Below are positions 4,345 through 22,167 of a stretch of 32,000 nucleotides of DNA, piece after piece. The stretch lies in the NCBI RefSeq assembly GCF_013393945.1, contig NZ_CP040297.1:5886809-5918808 (forward strand). The letters run 5' to 3'. Below the pieces are notes generated by a model. That model was not told the origin of the DNA. It saw nothing but the letters and a program-made list of their open reading frames with translations, and ran no database searches. Numbering within the stretch: position 1 is the first letter of the stretch; every line of letters begins with the position of its first letter. The translations under genes and the position numbers were made by a program. Origin of the DNA: Nostoc sp. TCL26-01. Its GTDB lineage: Bacteria; Cyanobacteriota; Cyanobacteriia; Cyanobacteriales; Nostocaceae.

Positions 4345-5035
4345 CGGTGGAACCTCTCTCAGCAATATCAAGTTTAGCCCACCCTAATTTTGATATCATT
4401 TTTAAAGGAAATTGGTATAAGAAAGGCATCAAGAAATTGTCTTTTATTTTCTACTGCGACTATAGCCGTTCTCAGATGGATATCTCAAAGCCTCATGGGT
4501 ACAGTTTCATTGTGCTGTGGCATCTGGGAAAGAGTTGTCTTAACTAATACCTCACAATAATTCTATGCGATCGCAGCTACTAAATCGCACGTGCTAAATA
4601 GTTAAGGTTTTTATCACTTCTTTTTCTGAATCAAAGTTTTTTGCTAGTTTGAAATCAGATCTATTTTTTACTCTGGGCAATAAATAATCAAAGCCAGCCT
4701 TGAAAAATTGTATTTAGTAAATGTTGAAAAGTTTACTTGTTAACAATAACTAAATTTTTCTTACATTGACTGATAAATTAACTCAAACGGCTTTTTCACA
4801 ATTCTGTTCACTTAGACTACAAGGGTTTACTTAGTACACTTAACCATAAAAAGGGGTCAGAAATATCGAGGCTTGATGTTAGGTTTCACTTCGTTTTACC
4901 CAACTCATGAATGATTGCATTCCATGCCTTTTTGTGGTGAGATGTACCCAGGTTTTAGATAGCTATAGGCTCTGGTGTTCGCGGCATTAAGAGCTTTGTA
5001 AGAACACTACAAACTAAAAACTGAGGACAAAAATC

Positions 5036-5518
5036 ATGTCCAAATCATTCACAACTTTACTCGCAGGAATCCAAGCACTGAGCATTTGGGGCTTAACCAC
5101 AATTGCAATGATTTCTTTACCAGAATCGGCACAGGCTATTTGTGCAGCCAACCCCATGGATGGTGTTTGGCAAAATGTGAATCCTAATACTCGCTCCCTA
5201 GTGAAAGCCGAATATCGCTCTAGTTGCCATGATGTGATCTTATGTCCAAATGGCAACTGTCAACCCCAACCCACTGATGTGGGAAAAATCCGGCTCTATG
5301 GTTCCTGCCATCCCACCGCCTGTGACTGGGGCTGGACAAATGTTTACCAACAGGCTCCGTGGGTGCGGGGAAAATATAACCAGGGATTTGCTGATAAATG
5401 GGTGTGGGCTAGGATACAAAATAATCAATTAGAGGTAATCACATTAGCTCAATTCAAAGACAACAGTGGTCGGGCTGACTATGCAACTAAGGATTACTTC
5501 CAAAAAACCTCTCCCTAA
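5036..5518 (+). CDS. secreted cysteine-rich hypothetical protein
   Basis: 160-aa ORF with ATG start 5 nt after GAGGA. Signal peptide MSKSFTTLLAGIQALSIWGLTTIAMISLPESAQA followed by 6 Cys. Confidence 0.55.
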   Translation: MSKSFTTLLAGIQALSIWGLTTIAMISLPESAQAICAANPMDGVWQNVNPNTRSLVKAEYRSSCHDVILCPNGNCQPQPTDVGKIRLYGSCHPTACDWGWTNVYQQAPWVRGKYNQGFADKWVWARIQNNQLEVITLAQFKDNSGRADYATKDYFQKTSP

Positions 5519-5524
5519 TGGTAA

Positions 5525-7219
5525 TTAATCCTGAAAAATCATAATATTACCAGAATAACAAGCTACCCAAACTTCCCTAGTTTGTGGATCGTAAGTAATG
5601 CCGATGGGATTAGGTTCAACATTGACTTTTTGTAAAACTTTCATGTCACTAGTACGGACTTTACTAACTGTATTTTCACCGTAGTTCACAACGTAAAGCC
5701 TTTGACCATCATCCGATAAAACCATGCTTCTGGGAGCATTACCTGTAGAGACTTTCTGGACTAACTTGCCTTGAGGTAAACTAATCTTGGCTATTTTACC
5801 TTCACCATTTAAAGACGCATAAAGGTATTTACCAGCCGGATCAATATTCAGATGACGTGGCGAATGACCAATATTTCTGAGCCATTTGACAGAAAAATCT
5901 CTGAGGTCAACTTCAGCAATTTCGTAGGAACCCATGACAGCAACATAGGCTTTTTCTGATGTGGCATTGACAGCAATTCCGCGCGGATATCGACCTAATT
6001 TAATCCTGTGAATTTCCTGATTTTTCTGAGCGTCTACCACACTCAAATCCCAAGAACACCAGTTACTTACGAGGATTAATTGTTCATCGGGAGAAGTGGC
6101 GACAAATTTGGGTACAGAACCAACCGGAATCACACTATCAATCTTCAGAGTTTCGGTATTGATGCGATATAAAAAACTCTTGTCAGTATTTTGGGATGGA
6201 TTGCATTGATCACTACCAGGATTGTTAAAGCCACGACCATACATTTGATAGTTAGACACCCAAGCATACTTGCCGTTGTGGGAAAAACTAGCCTCAACTG
6301 GAGCGCCTTTATACTTACCTTTAAATTGAGAATAACCGTATTTTGACAAATCTACTTCGTCAGGAATTACTTTAACTAACTTATAGTCTCGATTGTAGAC
6401 AGTAATATTATGATTATACATCATATTCTGGGCAAAAAATAGACCATTCCCTGAATAAACTACCGATTTTGGGGAAATTTTGCCAGAAATAGTTTTAATT
6501 AGTGTCATCTGCCCTGAAGGACTAGGAGCATTGACTGGAGCATTTTCGAGGGGTTGAGAAGTATCTTGGATGAATGGTTGTAGTGGAGTTGTGTTTGCGA
6601 GTGATGAGGCTAATACCCGCGAACTCGATTCTAAAACTGATGATGTTTTTTGTCCGACAATCCCATCAGCATAGAGCTTGTTAGCTTTTTGGAATTTTAT
6701 CACGGCTGTTGCTGTTGCCGTGTCAAACTTGCCTGTAATTACTCCCAAAAAATATCCGTCTGCTTGCAGTTTTTCTTGCAGAGAGATGACGCGATCGCTT
6801 TCGTCACCCTTTTTCAGCGAAGATTGAGCAGCTACCTGTGCTGGTTTATCCACCGGAGCTACATTAGATTCCAGTAAAACCAAAGTTTCCCTACCAACAA
6901 CCCCATCAGCAGTTAATCCATGAGCTTTTTGGAATTTAATCACAGCTGCTTCCGTGACAGCACCAAAATATCCTGTAGGCTCTTGGTTAAAATATCCAGT
7001 TGCTTGCAGCTTTTGTTGGAGAGCCACCACTTGCGCATTTCTGTGACCTTTTTTGAGAGCCACGGCTGGGTTAGAAAAATTCAATGAACCCATCGCAAAG
7101 GAAACCGCTAGCATCAAAGCTCTGCTGCTATTTGTTGTCCAATTTAGTTTTTGTACGCAGACATCGTTGGCAGATGTCTCATAAGTCTCAGCTAAATGCA
7201 AGTAAGCAAGTGTGTCCAT
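5525..7219 (-). CDS. peptidoglycan-binding (2x PG_binding_1) / YVTN-type beta-propeller repeat protein
   Basis: Two repeats of the type VxxLQxKLQAxGYF...G(Y/K)F...T..AVIKFQKA..L.ADG(V/I)VG. The C-terminal part has repeated GxxPRG(I/M)A/V..DG..LYV(V/S)N-type YVTN propeller motifs. ATG 7219 gives MDTLAYLHLA, an N-terminus common in cyanobacterial proteins; the ORF track opens at TTG 7237. Confidence 0.75.
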   Translation of the reverse strand: MDTLAYLHLAETYETSANDVCVQKLNWTTNSSRALMLAVSFAMGSLNFSNPAVALKKGHRNAQVVALQQKLQATGYFNQEPTGYFGAVTEAAVIKFQKAHGLTADGVVGRETLVLLESNVAPVDKPAQVAAQSSLKKGDESDRVISLQEKLQADGYFLGVITGKFDTATATAVIKFQKANKLYADGIVGQKTSSVLESSSRVLASSLANTTPLQPFIQDTSQPLENAPVNAPSPSGQMTLIKTISGKISPKSVVYSGNGLFFAQNMMYNHNITVYNRDYKLVKVIPDEVDLSKYGYSQFKGKYKGAPVEASFSHNGKYAWVSNYQMYGRGFNNPGSDQCNPSQNTDKSFLYRINTETLKIDSVIPVGSVPKFVATSPDEQLILVSNWCSWDLSVVDAQKNQEIHRIKLGRYPRGIAVNATSEKAYVAVMGSYEIAEVDLRDFSVKWLRNIGHSPRHLNIDPAGKYLYASLNGEGKIAKISLPQGKLVQKVSTGNAPRSMVLSDDGQRLYVVNYGENTVSKVRTSDMKVLQKVNVEPNPIGITYDPQTREVWVACYSGNIMIFQD

Positions 7220-7533
7220 AGTTGGGGAAGTAACCAAGACCAGGATATATTTTGTAAAAATTATAACTCATTTATTTATTTATACTTATAAAATTGGTCA
7301 ACTGTATAATATGTTTTGGCAAATGGGGATGAAAGGCGATCGCCCTACTTATACCAATTCAAAATTCAAAATTAAGCAAGCCAGATATAACAAGGGTTTG
7401 AAAGTGTGTATCTGTTGCATTCTTTTTTCAAATTGGTATGAGGGCTGCCAAATCCACACGGTTATCTAGTCTTGCTGACTAGTGATTTTCGTGGAATCAG
7501 GAGAGAAGTATCACCGACAACAGGTATCAGAAT

Positions 7534-8340
7534 TTACAACAAATCTGGGTTTTCTCCCAGTTCTAACAAGCGTGCTGCTAGACGTTCAGCACGTTGACGT
7601 TCTTGTTCCGCACGTTGGCTTTCTTGTTCCGCACGTTGGTTTTCTTGTTCAGCACGCTGGCTTTCTTGTTCCGCACGCTGGACAGCTGCTTCTTCTGGCA
7701 ACAATACTAAATTTCCAGTCTGATCATAAAATCTTAGCCACACACCCGTTTCTCTATCAATACAACCTTCCCAGGTTCCCAAATAAAAACCTAATGCTTC
7801 GCACCAAAGCCAGCCACGACTATCTAGTTCCAGGGGTTGATATTTCTGGTAAGAATCTAGATGCCAACCTTGGAGTGAGTTGGGATCAAATGGGTTAAAG
7901 ATAAAATAATCTGGTGTGTGAAAGACCCTTTCATATAATTGTTTTTTGGTAACTTTGTCTATTCTCTGGGTGCTTTCTGATAAAAGCTCAACAATCACAT
8001 CTGGATAACGTCCATTTTCATCCCAGACAACCCAACCTTGACGAGGATAACTACCATCAACATCTAAGACAACAAAAAAATCAGGCCCCTTAAAATCACG
8101 GTTTTTCACTTGGGCGCTGCTGTAATATACAAACATATTACCCCCCGTGAAGTAATCATTACGGTCTGCCCAGGCTTGCTGTAATGACCGAATTAGAGCA
8201 TTAATGGCGATGCGATGGCGGTTGCTTTCCAAAGGTACTCCGTCGTCAAAAATTAAATTTGTAGGTGGCGTAGGTGGATCTATCCACTCCGCTATTTCCT
8301 CTGGTGGGTTGGTTACTGCTGTGGTGGTTTCTAGAGACAT
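7534..8340 (-). CDS. Uma2-family (DUF820) restriction-endonuclease-like protein with C-terminal AEQESQR heptad repeats
   Basis: Typical Uma2 layout (LESNRH.., PDFFVVLD, PDVIVELLSEST) and the C-terminal tail RAERLAARLLELGENPD seen in cyanobacterial Uma2 proteins. Confidence 0.8.
   Translation of the reverse strand: MSLETTTAVTNPPEEIAEWIDPPTPPTNLIFDDGVPLESNRHRIAINALIRSLQQAWADRNDYFTGGNMFVYYSSAQVKNRDFKGPDFFVVLDVDGSYPRQGWVVWDENGRYPDVIVELLSESTQRIDKVTKKQLYERVFHTPDYFIFNPFDPNSLQGWHLDSYQKYQPLELDSRGWLWCEALGFYLGTWEGCIDRETGVWLRFYDQTGNLVLLPEEAAVQRAEQESQRAEQENQRAEQESQRAEQERQRAERLAARLLELGENPDLL
7586..7684. repeat. 21-bp tandem repeat, about 4.7 copies, in frame inside the Uma2 gene
   Basis: Units tcagcacgttgacgttcttgt / tccgcacgttggctttcttgt / tccgcacgttggttttcttgt / tcagcacgctggctttcttgt plus a partial unit. 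They encode AEQE(S/N/R)QR repeats on the minus strand. Confidence 0.9.
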
Positions 8341-8739
8341 AATAATAACGCTCCCTTATTAGCATTGACCCATTTTTTATCATAATATCTAAACTACCAA
8401 AAAGCGGGGAAACCACTGAATAATTTACACAATAACTCTGGTAATTTACGGAAATTGCTTTAAATGCAGAGACTGTATTATATCAGCCTGGTCTTAATTA
8501 ATTAAAAAGGTTAATTTACGAGCATATTACAGAGTTTAATTGTCGCATCAGATTTTTTGCACATCCTTTGAAGATTTTTATTTATTTTGATAGTTGAAGT
8601 AAAATATTATGCAAGGATAATATATATAAAGATAGTGAATAATAACCAGCATCAATAATAGAAAATTCTTTGATTAAGTTTAGTCAAGCTAATAGCGATC
8701 GCTCACAATTTTACTATAAATAAAATTTTCAGGTTAAGC

Positions 8740-8859
8740 AGTGAGGGAGTGCTGAGTGAGGGAGTGAGGGAGTGCTGAGTGCTGAGTGCTGAGTGAGGGA
8801 GTTCTGACCAATGACTATTGACTAATGACCAATGACTAATGACTATTGACCAATGACTA
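8740..8859. repeat. composite STRR block: (GAGTGCT/GAGTGAG/GGAGTGA)n then (ATGACTA/ATGACCA/TTGACTA)n
   Basis: Direct reading. About 66 bp of the first heptamer family is immediately followed by about 54 bp of a TTGGTCA-type (STRR2-like) family, ending at the AAGGAG Shine-Dalgarno of ftsH. Confidence 0.9.
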
Positions 8860-8869
8860 AGGAGTAATT

Positions 8870-10777
8870 ATGTCAGTCGAAACTGATGGCAATGGGGAAA
8901 TTAAACCACCAGAAACTAGACCGTTTGGGGGTAGTTTCATACTGTGGTTGGCATTTCTCATTTTGTTAAATTTGATTCTGTTTGGTCAACCCCGCTATCC
9001 ACAAGTACCCTATAGTGATTTTGTTTCTCAAGTTGAGGCTGGTCAAGTTGCTCGTGTTGTCATTAGTTCTGACCGGATTGAATATGAATTAAAATCAGTA
9101 CCGACTACAGAAAAATCGCGTCAGATATTTGCTACTGTACCACTGCCAACAGATACAGAATTACCCAAAATTCTGCGACAATATAATGTCCAAGTTTCAG
9201 CTATTCCTGCTAATCACAACAGTTGGATTTCTATTTTACTCAGTTGGATATTACCACCATTGATTTTTATTTTCATTTGGGGTTTTTTAATTAGCCGAAG
9301 TCAGATGGGAGGGCCAGCCGCTTTAACAATTGGTAAAAGCAATGCCCGCATTTATGGACAAGGTACAACAGGGGTAACTTTCAATGATGTGGCTGGTGTT
9401 GACGAAGCCAAAGCCGAACTACAAGAAATTGTTGATTTTCTCAAAAATGCCGCTAAATACACTCGCTTGGGCGCAAAAATCCCCAAGGGTGTGTTATTAA
9501 TCGGCCCTCCAGGTACAGGTAAAACATTACTAGCAAAAGCGATCGCAGGTGAAGCGGGAGTGCCGTTTTTTAGTATTTCTGGCTCAGAATTTATCGAGTT
9601 ATTTGTGGGTATTGGTGCAGCACGGGTACGTAATTTATTTGAGCAAGCCAAACAACAAGCGCCTTGTATCGTGTTTATTGATGAGTTAGATGCTTTAGGT
9701 AAATCACGAGGCGGAACTGGCCCGATTATCGGTGGTAATGATGAGCGAGAACAAACTCTCAACCAATTACTATCGGAAATGGATGGTTTTGATCCCAACA
9801 CAGGTGTGATTTTGTTAGCTGCAACCAACCGTCCAGAAGTGTTAGATCCGGCGTTGCGTCGTCCTGGTCGATTTGACAGGCAAATTTTGGTAGACCATCC
9901 AGATAAAATAGGCAGAGAAGCTATTCTCAAAATTCATGCCAAATACGTCAAGTTAGCCACTGATGTAGACTTAACTAAATTAGCTGCCAGAACTCCCGGA
10001 TTTGCTGGCGCAGATTTAGCCAACCTCGTCAATGAAGCCGCACTCTTAGCAGCCCGACGCAACCATGAACAGGTGATTATGGCTGATTTCCAGGAAGCAA
10101 TTGAGCGATTGTTAACAGGTTTAGAGAAAAAGTCACGGGTATTGAGTGAAATGGAGAAGAAAACAGTTGCCTATCATGAAGTTGGTCATGCGTTGATTGG
10201 GGTTTTAATGCCTAGTGCAGGGAGTGTGGAAAAAATTTCTGTTGTACCGCGTGGTATAGGTGCGTTGGGCTATACATTGCAATTACCAGAAGAAGACCGT
10301 TTTTTGATGACAGAAGATGAAATTCGTGGCAGAATTGTTGCTCTTTTAGGTGGACGTTCGGCAGAAGAATTAACTTTTGGCAGGGTTTCTACTGGTGCTA
10401 GCGATGATATTCAAAAAGCCACTGATTTAGCTGAACGGTTTGTCACACTCTATGGTATGAGTCAGAAACTAGGGCCAATTGCCTTTGAGAAGATACAACA
10501 ACAGTTTTTAGAAGGGTTTACTAATCCTCGTCGGCCAGTGAGTCAAAAGATTTCTGAGGTGATTGATTGGGAAGTAAAAGAAATAGTGGATGGGGCGCAT
10601 CAAATTGCTTTGAAGATTTTGATAACTAATCAAGAACTATTACGAGAAACATCTGAAATCTTATTAGAAAAGGAAGTTTTGGAGGGGGAAGAATTGCGAT
10701 CGCATCTCCACCGTGTCCAAAAACCCCCAGAAATGGATGAATGGTTGCAAACAGGATTGCTTTCTTTGCCAGCGTAG
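8870..10777 (+). CDS. ftsH: ATP-dependent zinc metalloprotease FtsH
   Basis: Two N-terminal TM segments, Walker A GPPGTGKT, Walker [32 protein letters not shown] and zinc site HEVGHA. ATG lies 5 nt after AAGGAG. Confidence 0.95.
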
Positions 10778-10791
10778 AAATTTGGGCTTAA

Positions 10792-12045
10792 TTAACGAAT
10801 GCCATCATTATCTATGGCGTTGTATGTGTCATCGGGTGAGAGTCCCAACCAAGGATCAGAATTAGGCGTGAGAAATAGTTGAGAGTATACCTTTTCGTTT
10901 AAGATTGTGATATTACTCGTCTGATTATTTGTCATAAACCACTGATGAATTTGACTGTGTAGCATATATTCATTTCTGACTGTATCTATAGCCATTGCCG
11001 TTTCAAATTTATTCACCAATTTTGACAGATTATCTGTGGGAGTTTTAGCGGACTGGAATCTTTTTGCTTTGATCAAAGCAATGCTATTTTGATCTAGTTT
11101 GGCATCAGCTAGATAAAGTTGCCCTAGCTTGTTCCAAGCTTCCTCATCAGTAACTTTTGCTAAGGTATCAGGGCTGTTAGGTTGTATATTTCTGAGTAGT
11201 GGACGCTCTACAATCATCTTGGAAACTGCCAAAGAACCTGCGACTGTTGCTGTTGGTTGAGTCGTGTTACTTGGTGATGCCGTCAGCCTGGGGGGAGAAC
11301 TGATACCCAACTTCGATAAATCATTTGTCCACTGGGTTTGGATAGCTTGCAGGCGATCGCTATGATATTTTTGTAAGAAGCGATCGCGATTGACACCAGC
11401 AAGTTGACGATATTCCTTAGCTGCTACCTCAGCTTGTTGCAATTGGCGTAAAAAAGCTTTGGGACTATACAATCCAGGAATAGCATCAAGCGGACGACCA
11501 GAAGCATCTAATATATAGTGAATACTATTACCTGTAATTGTTCTTTCTAACTTGCGTCCATCACCAAAATCAATCGTCACCTTGGGTACAGGACGTACTG
11601 ATTGCCAGTGTAAAATGAAACGGTCTTGCAATAATTTTGATATTTCTGCATTAGGATAAAGTGCCACGCGGAAAAACCGACTATTTGCACAACTCAAATC
11701 TTGATCAAGTTTACCCAACAACCGCAGAGATAAAATTGGTTTACCGCTAGCTTGTGCTGCTGCTTTGGCTTGTTCTAAGTCAGTGTACCAATAAAGACGA
11801 GAAGCGTAACAATCTCGTTGCTGACACAGTGCATCTAAAGCTATTCTCACATTGGGATTATTCAGTTGATTAGCATAAGTTTTTAAAAATACTTGCAACC
11901 CCTGATTTCCCTGTTTCCGTAGAGTCGTCACTTCTTGAGATAACTGAGATGCTTGACTTACCGGATTTTGAGCCTCAGCAGCTGGCAGAAAGCTCAAACT
12001 GATGAGCATTAACACACAGGGAGTTTTCAGAGGACTAAATTTCAT
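10792..12045 (-). CDS. secreted hypothetical protein, possible thioredoxin-fold (Thioredoxin_7/DUF255-like) domain without a CxxC
   Basis: Signal peptide MKFSPLKTPCVLMLISLSFLPAAEA. The segment WYTDLEQAKAAAQASGKPILSLRLLGKLDQDLSCANSRFF...GNSIHYILDASGRPL resembles thioredoxin-like domains, but the functional call is weak. Confidence 0.55.
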   Translation of the reverse strand: MKFSPLKTPCVLMLISLSFLPAAEAQNPVSQASQLSQEVTTLRKQGNQGLQVFLKTYANQLNNPNVRIALDALCQQRDCYASRLYWYTDLEQAKAAAQASGKPILSLRLLGKLDQDLSCANSRFFRVALYPNAEISKLLQDRFILHWQSVRPVPKVTIDFGDGRKLERTITGNSIHYILDASGRPLDAIPGLYSPKAFLRQLQQAEVAAKEYRQLAGVNRDRFLQKYHSDRLQAIQTQWTNDLSKLGISSPPRLTASPSNTTQPTATVAGSLAVSKMIVERPLLRNIQPNSPDTLAKVTDEEAWNKLGQLYLADAKLDQNSIALIKAKRFQSAKTPTDNLSKLVNKFETAMAIDTVRNEYMLHSQIHQWFMTNNQTSNITILNEKVYSQLFLTPNSDPWLGLSPDDTYNAIDNDGIR

Positions 12046-12263: not shown

Positions 12264-13496
12264 TTAAACATTCCCCAGACAAACTTGCTCATAACGCTTA
12301 CCTGCCATATCCCAAGTAAACTCAGCTTCTACCAATTGTCTACCATTGTGAGATAACTGCGATCGCATCTCTCCATCTTCAAACAGTTGACTAATAGCTG
12401 TGATATATTCTGCTGGTTGATTAGCTCGGAGTGCTGTTAACGATATATTATCACCATCAACAGCCAGTCCTTCTAAACCGCGATCGCTAGCTACCACTGG
12501 TACACCTGCTGCCATTGCTTCTAAAGTCTTATTTTTAATCCCAAAACCCGTTCTCAACGGCACTACACAGACAGTAGATTGATGTAGATAATCTACCATT
12601 GACGGCACTTTACCAGTCACAATCACACCGGGAATCTGATGAAGATTTAAAACTTCTGCTGTCGGTCTTGCACCAACAATGCTAAAAGTAGCATCAGGAT
12701 AACGCTTTTGTAATTCTGGGAATACATCTAACGCAAAGAAACGCGCTGCATCAATATTGTGAGAAGCATCCATAGCCCCCACAAAGATTAAACTATGTCC
12801 ACCTGGGTCTTGAGAACGACAAGGAAACAAATTTAAATCAACACCATTGGGAATAACCTTAATCTCAATATCCGGACGAAGTTTGAGAAATTCTTGGCGA
12901 TCGTCTTGTGTTGTCACCACAATCTGCGAAAATTTACTACAGTAGCGCTGTTCGTAACGCTTCAAGACAAGAGAGAGGTATAGGCGATCGCGTAGAGCAT
13001 TTTGAGCTGCACCCATCTCTAAATGATCCCGCATCCAGCCGTAAACTGAACTGTGAACATCTATCACTGTATTAACAGTATTACGAAACTCCGGACGGAT
13101 GTATATTTCATTCACACTATGCTCACAGGTAATCACATCATACTTCTTCCCCGCAACGCAACCATCAACAAAAGCTTGAATCTGCGGTGAATAACGATGT
13201 AAAACATTAGGTGGTGTCGCCTTTACCACAGACTCTATAAACCGTGACGTTTTCGCCAACAACCCAGTTACCATATTTCCCGACTGGGGTTCCGGCGGTA
13301 GAGGAAAAATCACTAGTTCACCAACATAGTTACGTAGTTCTGCCACTTCATCATCCGACACACCCTTGTTATACTGTGTCACTAAAGTCACGTCATGATT
13401 TTGCTGGAGGTACTTGAGTAAATTAAAAGTTCTAATTTCCGTCCCGCCACGGCTAGGTGGATAAGGAAACGTTGATGACAGCATCAAAATACGCAT
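12264..13496 (-). CDS. glycosyltransferase family 4 (GT-B, Glycos_transf_1)
   Basis: N-terminus MRILMLSSTFPYPPSRGGTEIR and C-terminal GFGIKNKTLEAMAAGVPVVASD (E-x7-E-type region) typical of GT4 enzymes. Confidence 0.85.
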   Translation of the reverse strand: MRILMLSSTFPYPPSRGGTEIRTFNLLKYLQQNHDVTLVTQYNKGVSDDEVAELRNYVGELVIFPLPPEPQSGNMVTGLLAKTSRFIESVVKATPPNVLHRYSPQIQAFVDGCVAGKKYDVITCEHSVNEIYIRPEFRNTVNTVIDVHSSVYGWMRDHLEMGAAQNALRDRLYLSLVLKRYEQRYCSKFSQIVVTTQDDRQEFLKLRPDIEIKVIPNGVDLNLFPCRSQDPGGHSLIFVGAMDASHNIDAARFFALDVFPELQKRYPDATFSIVGARPTAEVLNLHQIPGVIVTGKVPSMVDYLHQSTVCVVPLRTGFGIKNKTLEAMAAGVPVVASDRGLEGLAVDGDNISLTALRANQPAEYITAISQLFEDGEMRSQLSHNGRQLVEAEFTWDMAGKRYEQVCLGNV

Positions 13497-13722
13497 ATAA
13501 ACTCTATAATCCTTTAAATAATTAGTATTTTTTCTAACTTGCTACTGCTACTTGTAAAATATAGCCGCAAATCATGTCAATATCCAAAATCGCCTTGTAT
13601 ACTTAGTAAAAACCAAACTAAATTTATATCTTACCCAACCAACAAGCATCTAAATATTTGTATTCATATAAAAGATAGACCAAAATCAAAGTTAGCTCTC
13701 AGCCAGAAATTCTATTTAAATT

Positions 13723-14676
13723 ATGAATAACCAACCACTACTATCTATAGTTACGCCGACATTAGGCAAATTTTCTGATTATTGGCTAGAAAATCTTTTA
13801 AAAATCACAGGTTCTGTCCAATTCATTTTAGTTTATCCTCCCAACACCAAAATTAGAACTATAGATGACCCCAGAATTACAGTAATAATCAGTCCCTACA
13901 AAGGCGAAATGCCACAAAGATTTGTGGGTTTACTCAACGCCCAAGGAAAATATCTTTTAGCCTTAGATGACGATGACTTTGTACATCCACAAGTGACTGA
14001 CTCAGTAGCTAAATACTTTCACCGATTTCCCGAAAGTTGGGTGCTGAGATTACAAAAACTCAATATCGATATTAACGACGAAAAACGCATCAAACAACCT
14101 TGGGAACCAATACCCGACATCGAACAACTAGATATCTGTAAAAAAACACCAGAAAATCCTTATCCCTACCAAAAAGGCAACTTTCAAGGCTTATTAGAAG
14201 TTCCCATCGCGCCCTTAAACAAAAACTTTGATTGGCGTTACTTAATCTGGCCTTTCATCAACAGAAAAGACAATGACGGATATCACTTTGAAAACTTCAA
14301 TAACATCATTTGGCGCACCGACTTAATTCAACAAGCACTCCCCGAACTTTCCCAAGCCACAAAAGTTTTAGGCGCAGTCACTTGGATACCTTCAAGCGGG
14401 TTTGATAGACTGTCTGGTTTATTTGTTCAAGCTAACTTTTTCGAGAAAGATGCTATCATCGGTCACTGGATGCCGAAACCAGAACAAATCCGATACATCG
14501 ACAAAGATCCAGCCTTAAAGCCACCAAGGTTTCATGTCATTTCTGATGCGTTATTAGTCAAGCATTTTCCTCAATATGGTTATTTGTGGAATCTGGTATT
14601 TAGTAAATTATATGGTGTGCCGAGAACAGCAGGTAAGTTAATCAAGTTAAAGTTAGTGAAGAAAGCAGTAAGATAA
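13723..14676 (+). CDS. probable glycosyltransferase family 2-like protein
   Basis: N-terminal LLSIVTPTLGK and acidic motif LLALDDDDF fit a GT-A fold (DxD-like). The rest is not recognisable. Divergent from the GT4 gene. Sampled lines have low GC, about 33%. Confidence 0.55.
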   Translation: MNNQPLLSIVTPTLGKFSDYWLENLLKITGSVQFILVYPPNTKIRTIDDPRITVIISPYKGEMPQRFVGLLNAQGKYLLALDDDDFVHPQVTDSVAKYFHRFPESWVLRLQKLNIDINDEKRIKQPWEPIPDIEQLDICKKTPENPYPYQKGNFQGLLEVPIAPLNKNFDWRYLIWPFINRKDNDGYHFENFNNIIWRTDLIQQALPELSQATKVLGAVTWIPSSGFDRLSGLFVQANFFEKDAIIGHWMPKPEQIRYIDKDPALKPPRFHVISDALLVKHFPQYGYLWNLVFSKLYGVPRTAGKLIKLKLVKKAVR

Positions 14677-14705
14677 TATTTTCCTCTAATAATCGAAAAT
14701 ATGAG

Positions 14706-15527
14706 TTAGCGAATTTCTGCTATCTTTCTAAGTTTTTGATAGGTTTCTCTTCCAAAACTTTTAATTTTATATTCTCCAGATTTAGTTGATTTGTCTAGAT
14801 TTTTCCAAGTTAAACCTTGGTTAGATTTTAGCCAATACTTAACAGCTTCTAATGCAGCCGAAATTTGCTTAGAATACATTCCAGCATCTTTTAATTTTTC
14901 TTCTATTTCCTCATGAGTTGCTGTTAATAAATTTATTTTTGGTGGTAAAGGGGGATCAATTTTTTGAATAAGTATTTCCAACTTAGATAATAATTGATTT
15001 AATTGGTTTTCAATAGTTATGATTTTTTCATCAAAATTAAATTTTTCTTTTGTCTGACTAGTAGCAGATACTAGTTGGTTTAATTTGGTATAAATTGGGG
15101 TTATTTTTTGATCAATTAATTTACCAATATCTGTATGTTGGGTTTCATCTATTCCAAAATGACTGTCGCTACTCAGCAACTGCTGCATTTCTTCTTTAGC
15201 AGCAGCAGCTTGCTCGTTTGTCATATCAAATACCCAAACCCAGAGTTTCTCAATATCAAGTTCTTTAGCAATTAAACACCAATCAGCACCGTAGACAAGC
15301 TCATATTCTTCTTCTTCAGTGTATGCTTCAGTACGGCGTACAATGAGAGGAATTAAATTACTCTTATGTTGATTTAGAGAATCTTCTATTATCTGACGAC
15401 TTTCTAACGAAATATTTTGTTGTTCAGAATCAGGTATGGCAATTTGAAAAGTATAAACCTGACCATGACTAATTGGTTCAATACCTAAATTTGCTCGAAT
15501 ACGAGAGCGGCGTTCTGAACTATCCAT
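14706..15527 (-). CDS. ParB/Srx-like N-terminal domain protein with degenerate arginine box, central coiled coil and C-terminal ComEA-like helix-hairpin-helix
   Basis: aa 40-100, SLESRQIIEDSLNQHKSNLIPLIVRRTE..YELVYGADWCLIAKELDIEKLWVWVF, aligns by eye to ParB box I/II (L..SI...G...P..VR...Y.IIAGERRxRAAK..G....V) with GERR replaced by GADW. aa about 195-273, INLLTATHEEIEEKL.DAG...KQISAALEAVKYW...GLTWKNLD...KIKSFGRETYQKL, resembles the ComEA HhH_3 pattern INtAt.eeL..lpGIG...A..I..yR...G.F.s.edL..v.GiG.kt.ekl. The ATG overlaps the upstream stop by 8 nt (ATGGATAG). Confidence 0.6.
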   Translation of the reverse strand: MDSSERRSRIRANLGIEPISHGQVYTFQIAIPDSEQQNISLESRQIIEDSLNQHKSNLIPLIVRRTEAYTEEEEYELVYGADWCLIAKELDIEKLWVWVFDMTNEQAAAAKEEMQQLLSSDSHFGIDETQHTDIGKLIDQKITPIYTKLNQLVSATSQTKEKFNFDEKIITIENQLNQLLSKLEILIQKIDPPLPPKINLLTATHEEIEEKLKDAGMYSKQISAALEAVKYWLKSNQGLTWKNLDKSTKSGEYKIKSFGRETYQKLRKIAEIR

Positions 15528-17031
15528 TATTTTTTAAATCTCCATTTGTAATTTGAATTAAATGATTAGCTAAATTTATATACCGTTCTAAAACTTTTTG
15601 TGCAGCTTCTTTATCTTGAGATGTTAACCTATCGTCAAATTCACCTTGATACAGTGGATATCCTTTATCTTGACAAACAGAAACAATATTCAGACGCGGA
15701 ATCCAAGTAGTTTCTGGAAAAAGCTCCACTTTGTTCATTCCACCGCTCTTTTCTAAGATATCAAAAAGTCTTACAACCATAGACTTGTTATAACTGGAAG
15801 ATTTTTGATCATACATACTAACAGCTATCCCTAAAATAGGTAAAGGTTCATCTGTTAACTGCTCTACCTCATTTGTTCTATCCAATACATATTCCAAAGC
15901 TCGAATTGCATACGCTGATAACTGAGTAGGAATCAGGATAGCTGATGATGCCATTAACGATATACTGTTAACTTTACCAAAAGAGGGAGGTGGATCGATA
16001 AGTACAAAATCATAATCATGTTTTTTCAGTTTTTTTGCTAATAAACGATCACTATCTACTGTCTGGTTAAGAGTAGTTTCCATTCGACTCAAGCGAATAT
16101 GTGATGGAACTAAGTCTAATTGAACATCTCCCCAACTTGTTGTAACTATTGTGTCTTCTAACTTAGTTCTAGGTTCAGTCAGTAGATGGGTAATATCTTT
16201 TTTTCCTTTCTGCTCAATGTCATCCAATGGATCTATTCCTAGTCCCATTGTCAAGTTAGCTTGAGCATCAATATCAATTAGCAAGACACGCTTACCTAGC
16301 TTGTTTAAAGCAGCAGCAAGATTTATAGTAGTAGTTGTTTTTCCTACGCCTCCTTTGTTATTAAATACTGTAATAATCATCGATTTTTTGTCCTTCTTAA
16401 TATTTGAAAGTTCAACTTTTTCTTCTGTAGTCTGCTGATTTGGTGCAGAATTTGCTTTAGTTTTGTTAAATAAACCCAGCATACCTTCTTGTTTTAATGC
16501 TTGCGAAATTGAATTTAAAAACTGTAACCGAATATTTTGTTGAGTTTTATACACAATAGATGTAAAGTTTAAATAAGTTTTTTTAGATAAAACTTTATGA
16601 AACAGGCTGTATTTATCAATAAGAGTTGGTTGTGAATACTCTGCTATCGTTGTAATTTTTTCTTCACAATTATAAAGTATACGAAAGTTATAACCATTGG
16701 TTAATAGACCAAGAACAGATCCTGTACTCCTCATATAATTATTAATCTGCCAAACACTGTGAGCAATGTTCTTACTAGGTGCTTTTACTTCAATAATTAA
16801 ATAAGCAGGTATGACTAACTTTGAGTCTGGTTGCCCTACTAAAAAATCAAGTTTGGATTGTAAAACTACTACTTGAGATTGCCAGTCAGCACTAGTATAT
16901 CCAAGAATACGCAAGAGAGGAATTACCACTTTTTGCTCAACATCAGACTCATTACTACTTAATGTAATTGCTCGAAAAATGTTTTGCAGAGTTGAGATGT
17001 AATCAGCATTCATACTACCATAGTAATACAT
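15520..17031 (-). CDS. fusion protein: N-terminal HsdR-N-type PD-(D/E)xK nuclease-like domain + C-terminal ParA/Soj/MinD-family deviant Walker A ATPase
   Basis: aa about 25-120: E32, D62 (KLDFLV), E81-x-K83 (IIEVK), Q95 (WQINNY) and TNGYNF, the layout of type I restriction enzyme R-subunit N-terminal (HSDR_N/HSDR_N_2) domains. aa 218-503: NNKGGVGKTT (K226, K231), LLIDIDAQANLT and FVLIDPPPS, which are ParA Walker A, A' and B. ATG at 17031; an alternative ATG at 17013. Confidence 0.8.
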   Translation of the reverse strand: MYYYGSMNADYISTLQNIFRAITLSSNESDVEQKVVIPLLRILGYTSADWQSQVVVLQSKLDFLVGQPDSKLVIPAYLIIEVKAPSKNIAHSVWQINNYMRSTGSVLGLLTNGYNFRILYNCEEKITTIAEYSQPTLIDKYSLFHKVLSKKTYLNFTSIVYKTQQNIRLQFLNSISQALKQEGMLGLFNKTKANSAPNQQTTEEKVELSNIKKDKKSMIITVFNNKGGVGKTTTTINLAAALNKLGKRVLLIDIDAQANLTMGLGIDPLDDIEQKGKKDITHLLTEPRTKLEDTIVTTSWGDVQLDLVPSHIRLSRMETTLNQTVDSDRLLAKKLKKHDYDFVLIDPPPSFGKVNSISLMASSAILIPTQLSAYAIRALEYVLDRTNEVEQLTDEPLPILGIAVSMYDQKSSSYNKSMVVRLFDILEKSGGMNKVELFPETTWIPRLNIVSVCQDKGYPLYQGEFDDRLTSQDKEAAQKVLERYINLANHLIQITNGDLKNNG

Positions 17032-17042
17032 TTAGTTGTATC

Positions 17043-17073
17043 ATTATATCCCAAAATGTTTACTGTGTAGCAA
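17043..17073 (-). promoter_or_regulatory. putative sigma70-type promoter of the nuclease-ParA/ParB-like cassette (consensus -10 TATAAT, weak -35 TTGCTA at 19-nt spacing)
   Basis: Minus strand reads TTGCTAcacagtaaacattttgggaTATAATgatacaactaaATG. The -10 (17048..17043) lies only 11 nt from the ATG, implying a near-leaderless transcript. Sequence only, no experimental support. Confidence 0.3.
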
Positions 17074-17082
17074 ATTTTGCTT

Positions 17083-17355
17083 TCATTGAAAAAACATTAA
17101 GCTCTCTGGAAAATCGTTAGGTAAGGCGTACATATCAAACATTGTAGTGGCGATCGCTGTTTTGTCTTCCAAGCACTTACGATTTAATTGGGGCTTGATT
17201 TTGGCATAACTGACCACCCCACCCTTACCAGTAGAACTGGTTTTGACAAGAATCGGATTGAGGTAGATATTTTTCTCTAGAAAATACCCGTAAAGCAATT
17301 CTCTAACAAAAGTTTCCTCAGTTTGCCCTTCTACAAAAACATTGACTCGAATCAT
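17083..17355 (-). CDS. DUF4276-family (Toprim-like) protein, apparently 3'-truncated remnant
   Basis: MIRVNVFVEGQTEETFVRELL matches the DUF4276/Toprim N-terminal (V/L)VEGxTEE motif; later GGVVSYAKIKPQL and TTMFDMYALPNDFP. Only 90 aa from ATG 17355, whereas I recall family members being roughly twice that length. This ATG overlaps the upstream TGA (ATGA). The ORF ends exactly at a GC-content breakpoint. Confidence 0.6.
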   Translation of the reverse strand: MIRVNVFVEGQTEETFVRELLYGYFLEKNIYLNPILVKTSSTGKGGVVSYAKIKPQLNRKCLEDKTAIATTMFDMYALPNDFPESLMFFQ

Positions 17356-18440
17356 CGTGCTGGTCTCCCGCCTAGAAGATTCTTCCGCCAAAGCTCACCC
17401 AAGCTATAATCTAATAGCCATGCTGACAACTCATCCTGATTCAGCCTGCGTAGGGAGGATGTCCCTTGATTACGGTCTACAACAATCACATCGTTAGCCA
17501 CAAATTCGTTGAGCAGTTCGACGGACTGAGTAGAAACAATCACTTGTTTAGAGGCAGTACGCATCAGCGCAGCCAGCACTGTAATAGCATAGGGATGAAG
17601 TCCTAGTTCTGGCTCATCAACTAGAATAGTTTCTGGCTGGAGGTCTTCAGGTTGTAGAAAAACCGTTGCTAAACACATAAAACGCAGCGTACCATCCGAA
17701 AGCAAGTGTGCCTTAAACGGAATATCCTGTCCTCGCTCAAACCATTCCAACTCAATCACTTCCTTGTTTTGAGGAACAGGACGCAGATAAAAGTCCCCAA
17801 AGAACGGTGCAACAAGCCGAATGGTTTTGATGATTCTTTGATAGGATGCCGGGTAACTGTCACGCAACAGATAGAGAAAGGATGCAAGGTTGCGGGCATC
17901 AGGACGCAGATAAGCATTGTCATTGATACCGTGCAGTTGTTTTATGTAAGCACTGTCACTCGTATCATGAAAATGATAAACTCGCCATTGCTGCATGGCT
18001 GACAAAACATACTGATTAATTTGGGTTTCTGTGCCAGTGAAAGCTTTTGTCTCAAAATGACCTCTACCTAGTTCATGTTCACCACTCATGTTCCACCAAA
18101 AGGATTCTCTAGCGAACATCAAGCGATTATCTTTGGTTGCTTCCAAGGTGGCGAAGTACCCATTATCACCGAAGTATAGCTGAAACTCTAATTGCTCCGT
18201 TGTTTTCCTGCCAAAATGCAATAAGGCATCAGGACTGCCTTGGCGACTGACAAAAACTTGTAGGTTCTGCTCCAGCAACTGCCCAACCATGCGGAAGAAG
18301 CCGATAAAATTGGATTTTCCTGCCCCATTAGCGCCAATCAAAATATTCAGTCTGGAGAATTCCAAGTCACACGAGGCAATTGACTTGAAGCCTTTTAAGA
18401 CTATTCTCGACAATTGTTTGTTACTGTTCATCCCCGTCAT
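17352..18440 (-). CDS. ABC/SMC-type 'AAA family' ATPase (AAA_21/AAA_15-like, OLD/PARIS AriA-like class)
   Basis: Walker A IGANGAGKSNF, ABC signature-like LSDGTLRFMCL, Walker B ILVDEPELGLHP and H-loop STQS. ATG 18440 lies 8 nt after GGAG; the ORF track opens at TTG 18455. Confidence 0.85.
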   Translation of the reverse strand: MTGMNSNKQLSRIVLKGFKSIASCDLEFSRLNILIGANGAGKSNFIGFFRMVGQLLEQNLQVFVSRQGSPDALLHFGRKTTEQLEFQLYFGDNGYFATLEATKDNRLMFARESFWWNMSGEHELGRGHFETKAFTGTETQINQYVLSAMQQWRVYHFHDTSDSAYIKQLHGINDNAYLRPDARNLASFLYLLRDSYPASYQRIIKTIRLVAPFFGDFYLRPVPQNKEVIELEWFERGQDIPFKAHLLSDGTLRFMCLATVFLQPEDLQPETILVDEPELGLHPYAITVLAALMRTASKQVIVSTQSVELLNEFVANDVIVVDRNQGTSSLRRLNQDELSAWLLDYSLGELWRKNLLGGRPAR

Positions 18441-18585
18441 AGAACAGTCTCCCAATAAACAGGATTTTTAGCTGCTAGTTTCATTTTATTTTGTATATGA
18501 GTATATTTAATTTTGTTCAGCCATTTAACGCAGACAAGTTGGTAATTAGATCACAATAGATATGTAGCCTGTTGTTTATCCAACC

Positions 18586-19950
18586 TTGAATCAACCTAAC
18601 TCCGTGGGAAATTTGCAAGAAACTCATTTAAACCGCGCCCGTGCCAGTCTTAGACAAGCACTGTCTTGGTATGGATATCTTCGCAAGTCAGGACATTTAT
18701 CATCTAACCCAGAATTGGCTGGTTTTGTGAAGCCAGAATTGGAAATATTAAACGCCACACTCAGCAAGCTAGACTCTAATGTGATTAGAATTGCCGTTTT
18801 TGGGTTAGTGAGTCGGGGTAAGTCGGCGGTGTTGAATGCCTTGCTGGGGAGTAAGATTTTGCAGACTGGCCCCCTTAATGGTGTGACGCAATGGCCGCGT
18901 TCTGTGCGCTGGCAACCGGGTGACAAGGTGATAGTAGAATTAATTGATACACCTGGGCTGGATGAGATTCAGGGAGAGTCACGGGCAAAAATGGCGCGGG
19001 ATGTGGTGCAGCAGGCTGATTTGATTTTGTTTGTAGTATCTGGTGATATTACCCGGACTGAATACCAAACACTGTTAGAATTAAGACATGCGCAAAAACC
19101 ATTGATTTTGGTATTTAATAAGATTGATTTATACCCGGATACAGACAGGGGAGCAATTTATCAAAATCTACAACAACTAGGTGCGGGGAATCCCCAAGCC
19201 AAGCCTTTGTTACCAGATGAAATTGTCATGGTGGCGGCGGAACCTGCACCGATGGAAGTCAGGGTGGAATGGCCTGATGGGAGGGTGAGTTACGAATGGG
19301 AAACACCACCGCCACAGGTACATGAACTTAGACAGACTATTTTAAACATTCTCAACCGAGAAGGCCGATCGCTCTTAGCTTTAAATGCCCTAATTCAAGC
19401 ACGGGATGCCGAAGCAGCGATCGCTCAAAAAACTATTGACATCCGCCAACAAGAAGCGGAAGATATCATCTGGCAATTTACTAAGTACAAAGCCCTGGCT
19501 GTGGGGTTAAATCCTGTGGCTTTTTTAGATATCATCGGGGGAACCTTTGCTGATTTAGCGCTGATACGTTCCTTAGCACGGTTGTATGGCTTGCCCATGA
19601 CTAGCTTTGAAGCTGGGAAAGTTTTTAAAACCATTTTATTCAGTTCTGGTGGCTTATTACTGGGAGAATTGGCTAGTGGTTTGCTCTTTGGTTTAGGTAA
19701 GAGTACTGCGGCCTTAACCAGTGGGGATAATCCTACCAATATTACTGCCTTTGCGGGGAGTGCGATCGCTCAAGCCGGAATCGCTGGTTATGGAGCCTAT
19801 GCTGTGGGGAAAGCTGCCCAAATATATCTAGAAAAAGGCTGCACTTGGGGACAATTAGGTGCTAGTACTGTCATTCAAGAAATCCTTTCACAAGTAGATA
19901 AAAATACAATTCTGTATCGGTTGCAACAAGAATTAGGTATGAAATATTGA
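18586..19950 (+). CDS. GTP-binding protein with C-terminal DUF697 membrane-associated domain
   Basis: G1 GLVSRGKSAVLNALLG, G3 DTPGLDE, G4 NKIDL and a glycine/alanine-rich hydrophobic C-terminus typical of DUF697. Start uncertain: TTG 18586, GTG 18604 or TTG 18613. Confidence 0.8.
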   Translation: MNQPNSVGNLQETHLNRARASLRQALSWYGYLRKSGHLSSNPELAGFVKPELEILNATLSKLDSNVIRIAVFGLVSRGKSAVLNALLGSKILQTGPLNGVTQWPRSVRWQPGDKVIVELIDTPGLDEIQGESRAKMARDVVQQADLILFVVSGDITRTEYQTLLELRHAQKPLILVFNKIDLYPDTDRGAIYQNLQQLGAGNPQAKPLLPDEIVMVAAEPAPMEVRVEWPDGRVSYEWETPPPQVHELRQTILNILNREGRSLLALNALIQARDAEAAIAQKTIDIRQQEAEDIIWQFTKYKALAVGLNPVAFLDIIGGTFADLALIRSLARLYGLPMTSFEAGKVFKTILFSSGGLLLGELASGLLFGLGKSTAALTSGDNPTNITAFAGSAIAQAGIAGYGAYAVGKAAQIYLEKGCTWGQLGASTVIQEILSQVDKNTILYRLQQELGMKY

Positions 19951-21489: not shown

Positions 21490-22167
21490 ATGACTCAAAC
21501 ACAAGGCGAACTAAAGCTACTTACTTTCGATGAATTTATCGCATGGTATCCAGAAAACTCAGAAGTGCGTTACGAATTACATGATGGGGTGATTGTTGAG
21601 ATGCCTAAGCCCAAAGGGGAGCATTCTAATTTGGCTGGTTTTTTGATTGAAGAATTACTCATCGCCATTAGAGAGATGGGTAAGCGTGGTATCTGGACTA
21701 TACCTAAAGAGTCTATTATTAAACCATACCGTGAGAGGTCAGGGTACGAACCGGACATTATTGTTTTAAATCAAGAAACTATTAATACTGAGACACGCTG
21801 GAAAAAAGAATCAGTTATCCATAATGCTAGTTCGGTCAAACTAATAGTTGAAGTAGTTTCAACCAACTGGCAAGATGATTACTACGATAAGCTGCGTGAC
21901 TATGAAGCTATGGGTATACCTGAATATTGGATTGTGGAGGACACTGCGTTGGACGGGTTTCCCGGCTTGAAGCAAGTGTCCGTTGATTATGCAGCCTTGG
22001 GTGGACGTGTATTTATTGGTAGTCCCAAAGTTCCCACTATTTTCGTCTGTGAATTGATTGATGGTGAATATCAAATGACACCCTTTAGAGAAACAAACCT
22101 AATAGTGTCTCCTACTTTTCCACAGTTGAATCTAACCGTACAACAAATTCTTGACTCGGTAATTTAA
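21490..22167 (+). CDS. Uma2-family (DUF820) restriction-endonuclease-like protein
   Basis: LTFDEFIAWYPE...YELHDGVIVEMP.P.GEHS, EPDIIVLN, VKLIVEVVS and EYWIV are typical Uma2 motifs. Confidence 0.8.
   Translation: MTQTQGELKLLTFDEFIAWYPENSEVRYELHDGVIVEMPKPKGEHSNLAGFLIEELLIAIREMGKRGIWTIPKESIIKPYRERSGYEPDIIVLNQETINTETRWKKESVIHNASSVKLIVEVVSTNWQDDYYDKLRDYEAMGIPEYWIVEDTALDGFPGLKQVSVDYAALGGRVFIGSPKVPTIFVCELIDGEYQMTPFRETNLIVSPTFPQLNLTVQQILDSVI

Follow-up and report, generated by a model that had tools for sequence, protein, structure and literature searches.

A 32,000-nt stretch of the Nostoc sp. TCL26-01 chromosome, referred to in its full length as the window, contains a cluster of four tightly packed genes, of which the last two (genes 3 and 4) are the main subject of this analysis. 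Gene 3 encodes a fusion of an HsdR-like nuclease domain with a Soj-like ParA ATPase, and gene 4 encodes a partner with the fold of ParB and sulfiredoxin (Srx) whose Box II is free of arginines and which we call a pseudo-ParB. This nuclease-ParA/pseudo-ParB pair is an uncharacterised operon; the other half of the cluster, genes 1 and 2, is already known as HEC-01, a named PADLOC candidate for phage defence. Most likely, the pair is an ATP-gated, DNA-bound nuclease under the control of the pseudo-ParB as adaptor. Our best explanation of the cluster as a whole, a HEC-01 remnant next to a resident nuclease-ParA/pseudo-ParB operon, is put forward tentatively and with somewhat less than even confidence.

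An earlier interpretation made from the letters alone (hereafter the sequence-only reading) had described four co-directional, tightly packed open reading frames (ORFs), and their coordinates were borne out by the ORF list: all lie on the minus strand, at 17352–18455 (gene 1), 17083–17391 with the true ATG at 17355 (gene 2), 15520–17031 (gene 3), and 14706–15527 (gene 4). The fusion protein of the window is 100% identical to an NCBI protein of the Nostoc sp. TCL26-01 chromosome. Its length had been read as 503 residues; the NCBI model (497 aa) and the alignment of homologues favour a start at M7 (ATG 17013), and the proposed combination of a PD-(D/E)xK nuclease domain with ParA was upheld by Pfam and Foldseek.

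The nuclease domain spans residues ~20–135 of the fusion (16627..16974, minus strand) and carries the motifs E28, D62, E81-x-K83, and Q95xxxY99. Pfam places HSDR_N_2 at residues 28–119 with 26.9 bits against a gathering cutoff of 25, and a sequence-profile search of the PDB with this domain gave nothing below E 0.6; it was structure prediction followed by Foldseek that resolved the fold. The AlphaFold model of residues 1–215 has a pLDDT (predicted local distance difference test) score of 83 and a predicted template modelling (pTM) score of 0.74. Its best Foldseek match is an HsdR fragment from V. vulnificus (PDB: 3h1t; E 9.5e-4, probability 1.0), with further matches at probabilities of 0.99–1.0 to a putative restriction endonuclease (9y1l), BpuSI (3s1s), and DrdV (7lo5). 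The predicted fold of the N-terminal domain is thus that of an HsdR-type PD-(D/E)xK nuclease. A helical linker and a low-confidence spacer follow at residues ~136–215 (16387..16626), with helices modelled at 134–191 and pLDDT values below 50 at 191–215; the length and the sequence of this linker vary across fusion homologues. The remainder, residues ~216–503 and the stop codon (15520..16386), is a Soj-type ParA ATPase domain with the deviant Walker A motif NNKGGVGKTT (K226, K231), D253/D255, and the Walker B residue D346. Pfam recognizes ParA/AAA_31 at residues 219–395 (E 5e-46), and the nearest PDB entries are the Soj proteins of H. pylori and T. thermophilus (E 1e-25 to 3e-24), ahead of MinD (~1e-11), McdA (4e-10), and ParF (1e-8). 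Only ParA follows the nuclease domain: the operon has no superfamily 2 (SF2) translocase, methyltransferase, or specificity subunit.

Across 33 homologues, aligned at a mean column identity of 63%, the residues E28, D62, E81, K83, Q95, Y99, K226, K231, D253, D255, and D346 are invariant. These include D62, E81, K83, K226, and K231, which the sequence-only reading had singled out for mutation. A further 14 distant fusions keep the D and the ExK, with the Q sometimes replaced by K. Judged by these residues, the fusion has an intact ATP-binding site together with an intact nuclease catalytic signature. PADLOC returned matches to the fusion at the level of the Walker A motif only, and those to mad2 and mad8 of MADS were marginal. 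The candidate PDC-M28B was considered and rejected: core and distant fusions score 30–42 bits, with matches that stay within the Walker A region and extend no further than profile position 166, and their partners match nothing.

Gene 4 starts within gene 3, with an overlap of 8 nt (15520–15527) that agrees with the sequence-only reading, and the two genes are probably translationally coupled. The first 16 residues of the partner (MDSSERRSRIRANLGI; 15480..15527, minus strand) form a basic helix, modelled at residues 3–14, which is a candidate for a peptide that stimulates the ParA ATPase. In the alignment, I10 and L14 never vary and R6 hardly does, and R6, R9, and the LG are kept in the Thermosynechococcus orthologue. 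The ParA-binding motif of canonical ParB is LG-R/K-GL (PMC12704722), and the N-terminal helix resembles this ParA-activating peptide. The domain that follows (residues ~17–118; 15174..15479) was modelled with a pLDDT of ~90, and its top Foldseek matches are all of the ParB fold, namely pNOB8 ParB-N, Noc, ParB, KorB, PadC, and sulfiredoxin (probability 1.0, best E 3.8e-5). In the model, therefore, the partner has a ParB/Srx fold, as the sequence-only reading had proposed. The PHROG family “ParB-like partition protein” matches the partner weakly (E 1.4e-4), orthologous partners match Pfam ParB_N with E values from 0.08 to 8e-9, and the partner of the window has no Pfam family (including ParB_N at threshold) and no NCBIfam family. 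A sequence-profile search of the PDB with the partner found coiled-coil proteins only, and neither Pfam nor NCBIfam detected a helix-turn-helix (HTH) or ribbon-helix-helix (RHH) domain in it.

The sequence-only reading had also called this ParB-like protein arginine-less, and rightly so. Its Box II reads G80-A-D-W-C-L-I-A, where the canonical form is GxxRxxA/GERRxRA; W83 is invariant in the alignment and D82 nearly so. The same position holds GHFE in the partner of locus L108 and GKEV in that of T. vestitus. Replacing a Box II arginine with alanine abolishes NTP binding in ParB-fold proteins (PMC12704722), and a canonical NTP switch is unlikely in the partner because the arginines of its Box II are replaced.

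Downstream of the ParB-like domain lies a central coiled-coil/low-complexity helical region (residues ~119–195; 14943..15173) with long helices, pLDDT values of 35–74, and many indels among homologues. The protein ends in a basic four-helix domain (residues ~196–273 and stop; 14706..14942) modelled at a pLDDT of ~94. A ComEA-like helix-hairpin-helix tail, as suggested by the sequence-only reading, was not upheld for this domain: Pfam found HHH_3 in 0 of 23 tails of the window type, ComEA was absent from the PDB profile search with the window tail, and hhalign gave a probability of 2.4% for the window tail against the tails of true HHH_3 orthologues. At the tail position, HHH_3 is nevertheless present in orthologues of a sister subfamily (39.9 bits in the L108 partner) and in several Nostoc proteins, and the tail of the L021 partner is a Rho_N/SAP domain (E 4e-11). 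The tail is therefore an interchangeable module, which in the HHH_3 and Rho_N/SAP variants is a known nucleic-acid-binding domain. Additional copies of the partner were seen in two loci. L023 has a second intact ParB-like gene (13474–14301), 95% identical to the operon copy and 1.1 kb downstream of it, among DUF2281/PIN toxin-antitoxin (TA) genes, and L016 has an extra N-terminal ParB-like fragment directly after the operon (8304–8681). Both could be orphan partner copies.

We collected 29 related loci, 20 from a genome scan and nine via exact-protein look-ups. The sequence-only reading had raised the question of whether the ParB-like gene always follows the fusion. Among the 20 genome-scan loci, it does so directly in all 18 that have sequence beyond the fusion, and the nine further loci agree except for P0266. 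This distant fusion of 434 aa has no ParB-like gene downstream, where a PALP-domain gene and a gene for an SMC_N/AAA_15/AAA_21 ATPase lie instead. For the 15 best fusion homologues, the contigs are identical in length to those that carry the partner homologues. When a profile of the nuclease domain was run against 1.84 billion representative proteins, 15 clusters were found at E < 1e-30 and 69 at E < 1e-10, and all 10 fusion-length matches sampled at E below 1e-13 were HSDR_N-ParA fusions. Named members come from Thermosynechococcus vestitus BP-1 (tll1395), Pseudocalidococcus, Leptolyngbya, Geitlerinema, Baaleninema, Planktothrix, Trichodesmium, Crocosphaera, Chamaesiphon, Pseudanabaena, Prochlorothrix, and a metagenome-assembled genome (MAG) of Sericytochromatia, and orthologues also occur in Nostoc punctiforme. 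Outside the cyanobacteria, members were found in Thioploca, Ca. Electrothrix, and one Actinomycetota-labelled MAG. The presence of fusions of a second subfamily (P0279, P0482) in the MAGs of Thioploca and Candidatus Electrothrix, both large filamentous non-cyanobacteria, suggests lateral transfer or binning contamination.

The fusion of BP-1, tll1395, is 40% identical to that of the window, overlaps the next gene by 8 nt, and is flanked by leuA and clpB; the product of the downstream gene, 262 aa long, is homologous to the partner (32% identity, hhalign 99%). Between orders, fusions are 57–60% identical. Also within the second subfamily, short ORFs of 150–260 aa that comprise the nuclease domain, alone or followed by the beginning of ParA, were seen on long contigs (P0417, P0437, P0407, P0414), for example in Planktothrix agardhii (193 aa, contig of 1.28 Mb) and Trichothermofontia (204 aa, 4.4 Mb). 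These ORFs could represent genes that were split, domains that stand alone, or pseudogenes; the search that found them listed short proteins only and informs on taxonomy, not on the frequency of fragmentation.

Homologues of the pair reside on Mb-scale chromosomal contigs. None of 72,556 PLSDB plasmids carries a full-length fusion or partner, and the viral contigs of IMG/VR held no pair, only generic ParA domains. Replication, conjugation, phage, and tRNA genes are all absent from the window itself, and searches for Rfam families, tRNAs, and terminator enrichment found nothing. The sequence-only reading had argued that this is not an ordinary plasmid partition locus, with which the plasmid survey and the gene content of the window agree. 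About half of the annotated neighbourhoods have housekeeping flanks (L022, L025, L026, L027, L108, and L109), and in Nostocales there is loose synteny with a downstream glycosyltransferase family 4 (GT4) gene (L004, L005, L021, L023). Between and upstream, the Nostocales neighbourhoods are variable and include extra ParA genes, TA pairs, AAA_16 genes, FtsK-exonuclease genes and, in the window, HEC-01. A divergent plain ParA-like gene (~290–310 aa) lies ~300 nt upstream of the fusion in L021 (6787–7689) and L024 (8807–9691), and also in L006 and L015; in the window, the HEC-01 remnant occupies this position.

In all 16 loci for which composition was compared, the window included, the pair is AT-shifted relative to its flanks. 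Its GC content at third codon positions (GC3) is below the flank mean in 16 of 16 loci, often below that of every neighbour, and rises with the GC3 of the host from 0.19 to 0.52. This fits a pair that is long-resident and has a gene-specific AT bias, whether this stems from low expression, from transfer, or from a role that the DNA plays in cis. A recent insertion into the window, as its GC dip might indicate, was rejected, as the AT shift is present in all 16 loci and GC3 tracks the host. With GT4 taken as a clock for allelic replacement, the window GT4 is ~58% identical to all others and the fusion 56–79%. Neither centromere-like repeat arrays nor close inverted repeats were found in 13400–18700, where the gaps flanking the pair measure only 51 and 29 nt. 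Because of the BP-1 orthologues, the housekeeping flanks, the GT4 synteny, the lack of plasmid and viral copies, and the tracking of host GC3, the pair appears to be long-resident in cyanobacterial chromosomes. The sequence-only reading had considered a cassette that landed in an older defence locus; the order looks reversed, given that the pair keeps its GT4 synteny in several Nostocales and occurs across cyanobacteria.

Genes 1 and 2 have a different identity. Gene 1 (17352..18455, minus strand) encodes an ABC ATPase of the AAA_21 family (Pfam, E 6.7e-25) that is apparently intact, with GANGAGKS as Walker A and ILVDEPE as Walker B in its translation; candidate start codons are TTG 18455, ATG 18440, and ATG 18431. 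The sequence-only reading had called it OLD/PARIS-like, of which the ABC ATPase assignment stands: the best PADLOC match is HEC-01A (PDLC04175; E 4.4e-151, profile positions 3–362 of 363), far better than the matches to mad3, AriA, GajA, and Old. Gene 2 (17083..17355) encodes a 90-aa truncated HEC-01B of the DUF4276 family in the Toprim superfamily. It covers only positions 1–69 of the 192 of Pfam DUF4276, which confirms that it is a DUF4276 remnant, and positions 1–85 of 168 and 6–96 of 230 in PADLOC HEC-01B profiles. By these alignments, it retains the N-terminal third to half and has lost the C-terminal half to two-thirds to deletion, since the stop codon at 17083 leaves just 51 nt before gene 3. 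DUF4276 is described as a nuclease domain of the Toprim superfamily that has a catalytic Glu and, following beta3, a DxD (PMC12065111), and gene 2 is not the full-length B with these residues. The two genes are adjacent and co-oriented and share the ATGA stop/start at 17352–17355 that the sequence-only reading had noticed. The HEC-01 pair in the window is probably dead, because the Toprim partner has lost its C-terminal part. HEC-01 was described as an Hma-embedded candidate made up of an ABC ATPase plus a partner that is Toprim-like, and in E. coli it gave no protection against any tested phage (bioRxiv 10.1101/2024.01.29.577857). We are confident that genes 1 and 2 are a HEC-01 remnant, a strain-specific decayed copy of a named, unvalidated candidate; the cluster can therefore not be called undescribed as far as this half, and this half only, is concerned.

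Genes 1–2 and genes 3–4 are almost certainly two independent, unrelated modules that are adjacent by accident, because HEC-01 is never adjacent in the relatives, the partner follows the fusion, and blastn homology is confined to the pair. HEC-01 genes adjoin the pair in none of the 29 related loci and were seen beside it in this window only. In the genome-scan loci, neither HEC-01, nor the DUF697 GTPase, nor any other window gene was found upstream of the fusion. When the window was compared with all relatives by blastn, homology began at ~17020–17031 and ended at ~14709–14753, that is, it covered the coding sequences of genes 3 and 4 only. The junction is also marked by a sharp change in GC content, with 0.436 for HEC-01 and 0.325 for the pair. 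The 51-nt gap at 17032..17082 (69 nt if gene 3 starts at M7) is the module boundary and a possible promoter for the pair. The sequence-only reading had pointed to a consensus TATAAT in this gap, which is present at 17043–17048, although the consensus scan reported neither a -35/-10 pair there nor any surplus of promoter-like sites (14 observed against 13.7 expected). The TATAAT is only a lead.

How the pair might work can be sketched from what is established for ParA/Soj and ParB, and we consider the following mechanism to be evenly poised between right and wrong. On binding ATP, the ParA halves would form a sandwich dimer on bulk DNA, and this dimerisation would bring two nuclease domains onto the duplex. 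The pseudo-ParB, dimerised via its coiled coil and tethered to DNA via its tail, would fire the ParA ATPase with its N-terminal arginine helix. The firing of the ATPase would in turn determine the position and the residence time of the nuclease-ParA on DNA and so gate cleavage. As to function, we lean towards resident genome maintenance over both cargo partition and a mobile defence cassette. That the pair serves polyploid cyanobacteria in maintenance or DNA processing, a function that would include cleavage, is a tentative proposal that may well prove wrong.

A number of features resemble those of a conflict system and weigh against this proposal. The nuclease domain is of the restriction-enzyme type, and GC3 is below the flank mean in every locus compared. 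Partner tails are swapped among orthologues, one genome has an extra, 95% identical copy of the partner, and short ORFs of the N-terminal domain occur on long contigs. The family is present in MAGs of Thioploca and Ca. Electrothrix, and the Nostocales neighbourhoods vary and include TA, AAA_16, FtsK-exonuclease, and HEC-01 genes. Neither a loading site nor a centromere-like repeat was found in 13400–18700, and the contact of the candidate N-terminal helix with ParA is proposed by analogy.

A defence role is possible, and many of the same observations speak for it. On this account, the pair would be an innate defence or anti-plasmid system in which the nuclease-ParA scans DNA and cuts what is foreign, while the pseudo-ParB, as a self-marker or safety catch, frees it from the nucleoid of the host. 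The restriction-type PD-(D/E)xK domain with its invariant catalytic signature, the persistently low GC3, the swapped tails and the extra partner copy, the island-like variable Nostocales neighbourhoods with HEC-01, TA, and STAND-like AAA_16 genes, and the apparent transfer to Thioploca and Electrothrix all fit such a system, and its absence from all plasmids searched is what an anti-plasmid device might show. We nevertheless regard it as unlikely, if the most serious of the rival accounts: PADLOC v2 has no model for it, about half of the annotated loci have housekeeping flanks, also in a streamlined genome of 2.6 Mb, conservation is very high (57–60% identity between orders, 63% mean column identity), GC3 tracks the host, which argues for long residence, and the pair was never found on the phages or plasmids searched, where defence systems usually travel too. 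A second rival is a non-catalytic ParA/ParB-type system for positioning or segregating chromosome copies or cargo, with the PD-(D/E)xK domain as an extra DNA-binding or regulatory module comparable to the N-terminal domain in ParA proteins of type Ia. In its favour, the pair is conserved, lies on chromosomes, and is set among housekeeping genes, its ParA domain is nearest to chromosomal Soj, and its partner has the ParB fold, basic N-terminal peptide, and coiled coil of other ParA adaptors. Cyanobacteria, moreover, are polyploid, and there are several cargos that ParA-family systems position (PMC7182216). Such a role is improbable all the same: a mere anchor would have no need of the D, ExK, and QxxxY, which stay invariant even at deep divergence, and the partner has neither a specific DNA-binding domain of the HTH or RHH type nor the arginines for CTP binding. 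Centromere-like repeats were not found in 13400–18700, and the ParA is unlike McdA (E 4e-10, against 1e-25 for Soj).

Still less probable, and given little credence by us, is a TA or addiction module in which the nuclease-ParA would be the toxin and its antitoxin the ParB-like protein. The two-gene operon with overlaps of 4–8 nt, the AT-rich composition, the intact and partial extra copies that resemble orphan antitoxins, and the TA genes adjoining the pair in L023 are in its favour; gene order and protein sizes are atypical for TA pairs, both proteins are strongly conserved in a pair that is apparently long-resident across the phylum, and the plasmids searched, where addiction modules thrive, do not have it. 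Finally, the sequence-only reading had treated all four genes as one undescribed defence or maintenance system. Co-directional and tightly spaced as they are in the window, this idea was rejected and seems scarcely credible: HEC-01 is missing beside the pair in 29 of 29 related loci, HEC-01B is truncated, GC jumps from 0.436 to 0.325 across the junction, and DNA homology to relatives ends at the start codon of the fusion.

Returning to the resident nuclease-ParA/pseudo-ParB operon, one more specific proposal is that it represents a hitherto unrecognised class of ParA-driven DNA-surveillance nucleases, in which a Soj-type switch spreads a restriction-type nuclease and a dead ParB-fold adaptor picks which DNA is spared and which is cut. 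The adaptor would be bound to DNA by its interchangeable tails and would select via local stimulation of the ATPase. Taken jointly, these two claims are speculative and we think them rather unlikely. The persistently AT-rich locus of the pair might itself be the loading site. If true, surveillance of this kind would give polyploid cells a novel means of telling resident chromosomes apart from DNA that is foreign or surplus.

Some features of the surroundings were noted in passing. Genes of the Uma2 family (PF05685, putative restriction endonuclease) flank the wider region in the window at 7534–8340 (minus strand) and 21490–22167 (plus strand), and Uma2 genes also lie near the pair in L022 and L025. 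The sequence-only reading had placed glycosyltransferases on one side of the cluster; 12264–13496 is the only confirmed GT4 among them, and the ORF at 13723–14676 (plus strand) has no Pfam match at E <= 1e-5. A 417-aa ORF at 10792–12045 (minus strand) has no Pfam family. In L025, from a distant order, FtsH is directly upstream of the pair and a Pyr_redox gene 1 kb downstream is 65% identical to window 2794–4371; both families also occur within 12 kb of the pair in the window (2794–4371 and 8870–10777), and these surroundings are possibly an ancient neighbourhood. L024 encodes, within 13272–18019, an 861-aa protein that combines a DNA_pol_A_exo1 3'-5' exonuclease, PDDEXK_1, and an FtsK translocase, beside large AAA_16 NTPase genes and not far from the pair, and L023 holds degraded pieces of these exonuclease-FtsK/AAA_16 genes at 4260–9210. 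The L024 locus may be another uncharacterised DNA-targeting module.

ParA/MinD ATPases are positioning switches, and we know of none with a nuclease. Here, a nuclease domain sits on a Soj-like ParA, is invariant from Thermosynechococcus to Nostoc, and is almost always accompanied by an arginine-less ParB fold, which suggests an undescribed coupling of an ATP-dependent DNA-binding cycle to DNA cleavage. This could bear on how polyploid cyanobacteria manage their chromosome copies, on resistance to foreign DNA, and on barriers to genetic engineering, and the orthologues in the tractable T. vestitus BP-1 and Nostoc punctiforme make the idea directly testable. With the partner, the ParB-CTPase fold, the subject of a recent survey, also gains a natural “pseudo-ParB”. 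Because the survey relied on Pfam ParB_N at the gathering cutoff (PMC12704722), it may have missed the core partner family.

In comparison with known systems, the pair stands apart, as the sequence-only reading had supposed: PADLOC v2 has no model for a nuclease-ParA/ParB-like pair, and the literature on tll1395, on combinations of ParA with a nuclease or HsdR, and on the ParA/ParB of cyanobacteria yielded no account of the family. Similarity to HEC-01 is limited to genes 1 and 2, with a near full-length A, the N-terminal part of B, and the ATGA coupling; B is truncated here, and genes 3 and 4 have no link to HEC-01, whose relatives are the OLD, Gabija, and PARIS systems and Mad3/Mad4 of MADS. 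Chromosomal ParABS (Soj/Spo0J) shares with the pair a deviant-Walker-A ParA, which in the fusion is nearest to Soj and contains the KGGxGK[ST] motif, as well as a downstream overlapping partner gene, the fold of the ParB N-domain, and a basic N-terminal peptide. Unlike in ParABS, the ParA has an HsdR-type nuclease domain at its N-terminus, its partner contains neither Box II arginines nor an HTH and has a coiled coil and a swappable tail, and no parS-like repeats were found near the pair (13400–18700). The nuclease domain has its fold, the D...ExK, and the QxxxY in common with HsdR and the type IIG/IIL enzymes BpuSI and DrdV but is placed on a ParA switch ATPase, not on an SF2 translocase or a methyltransferase. 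The two-gene plan, in which a ParA-family ATPase is joined by an adaptor that has a coiled coil and, at its N-terminus, a peptide for interaction with ParA, is that of McdA/McdB and PadC-ParA, none of which has a nuclease. PadC is likewise a ParB-fold adaptor, yet it binds CTP, whereas the partner described here is arginine-less. McdB is small and largely disordered (PMC7182216), and carboxysome positioning by McdAB was rejected as an identity for the pair on account of the poor match to McdA relative to Soj and the folded ParB/Srx domain of the partner. A combination of the ParB/Srx fold with a nuclease for the targeting of DNA also exists in enzymes of the GmrSD/SspE/BrxU type (PMC4619093). 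These have an active ParB-like DUF262 NTPase fused to an HNH nuclease in one protein; in the pair from Nostoc sp. TCL26-01, by contrast, the ParB fold is arginine-less and the nuclease, of the PD-(D/E)xK type, is on ParA.

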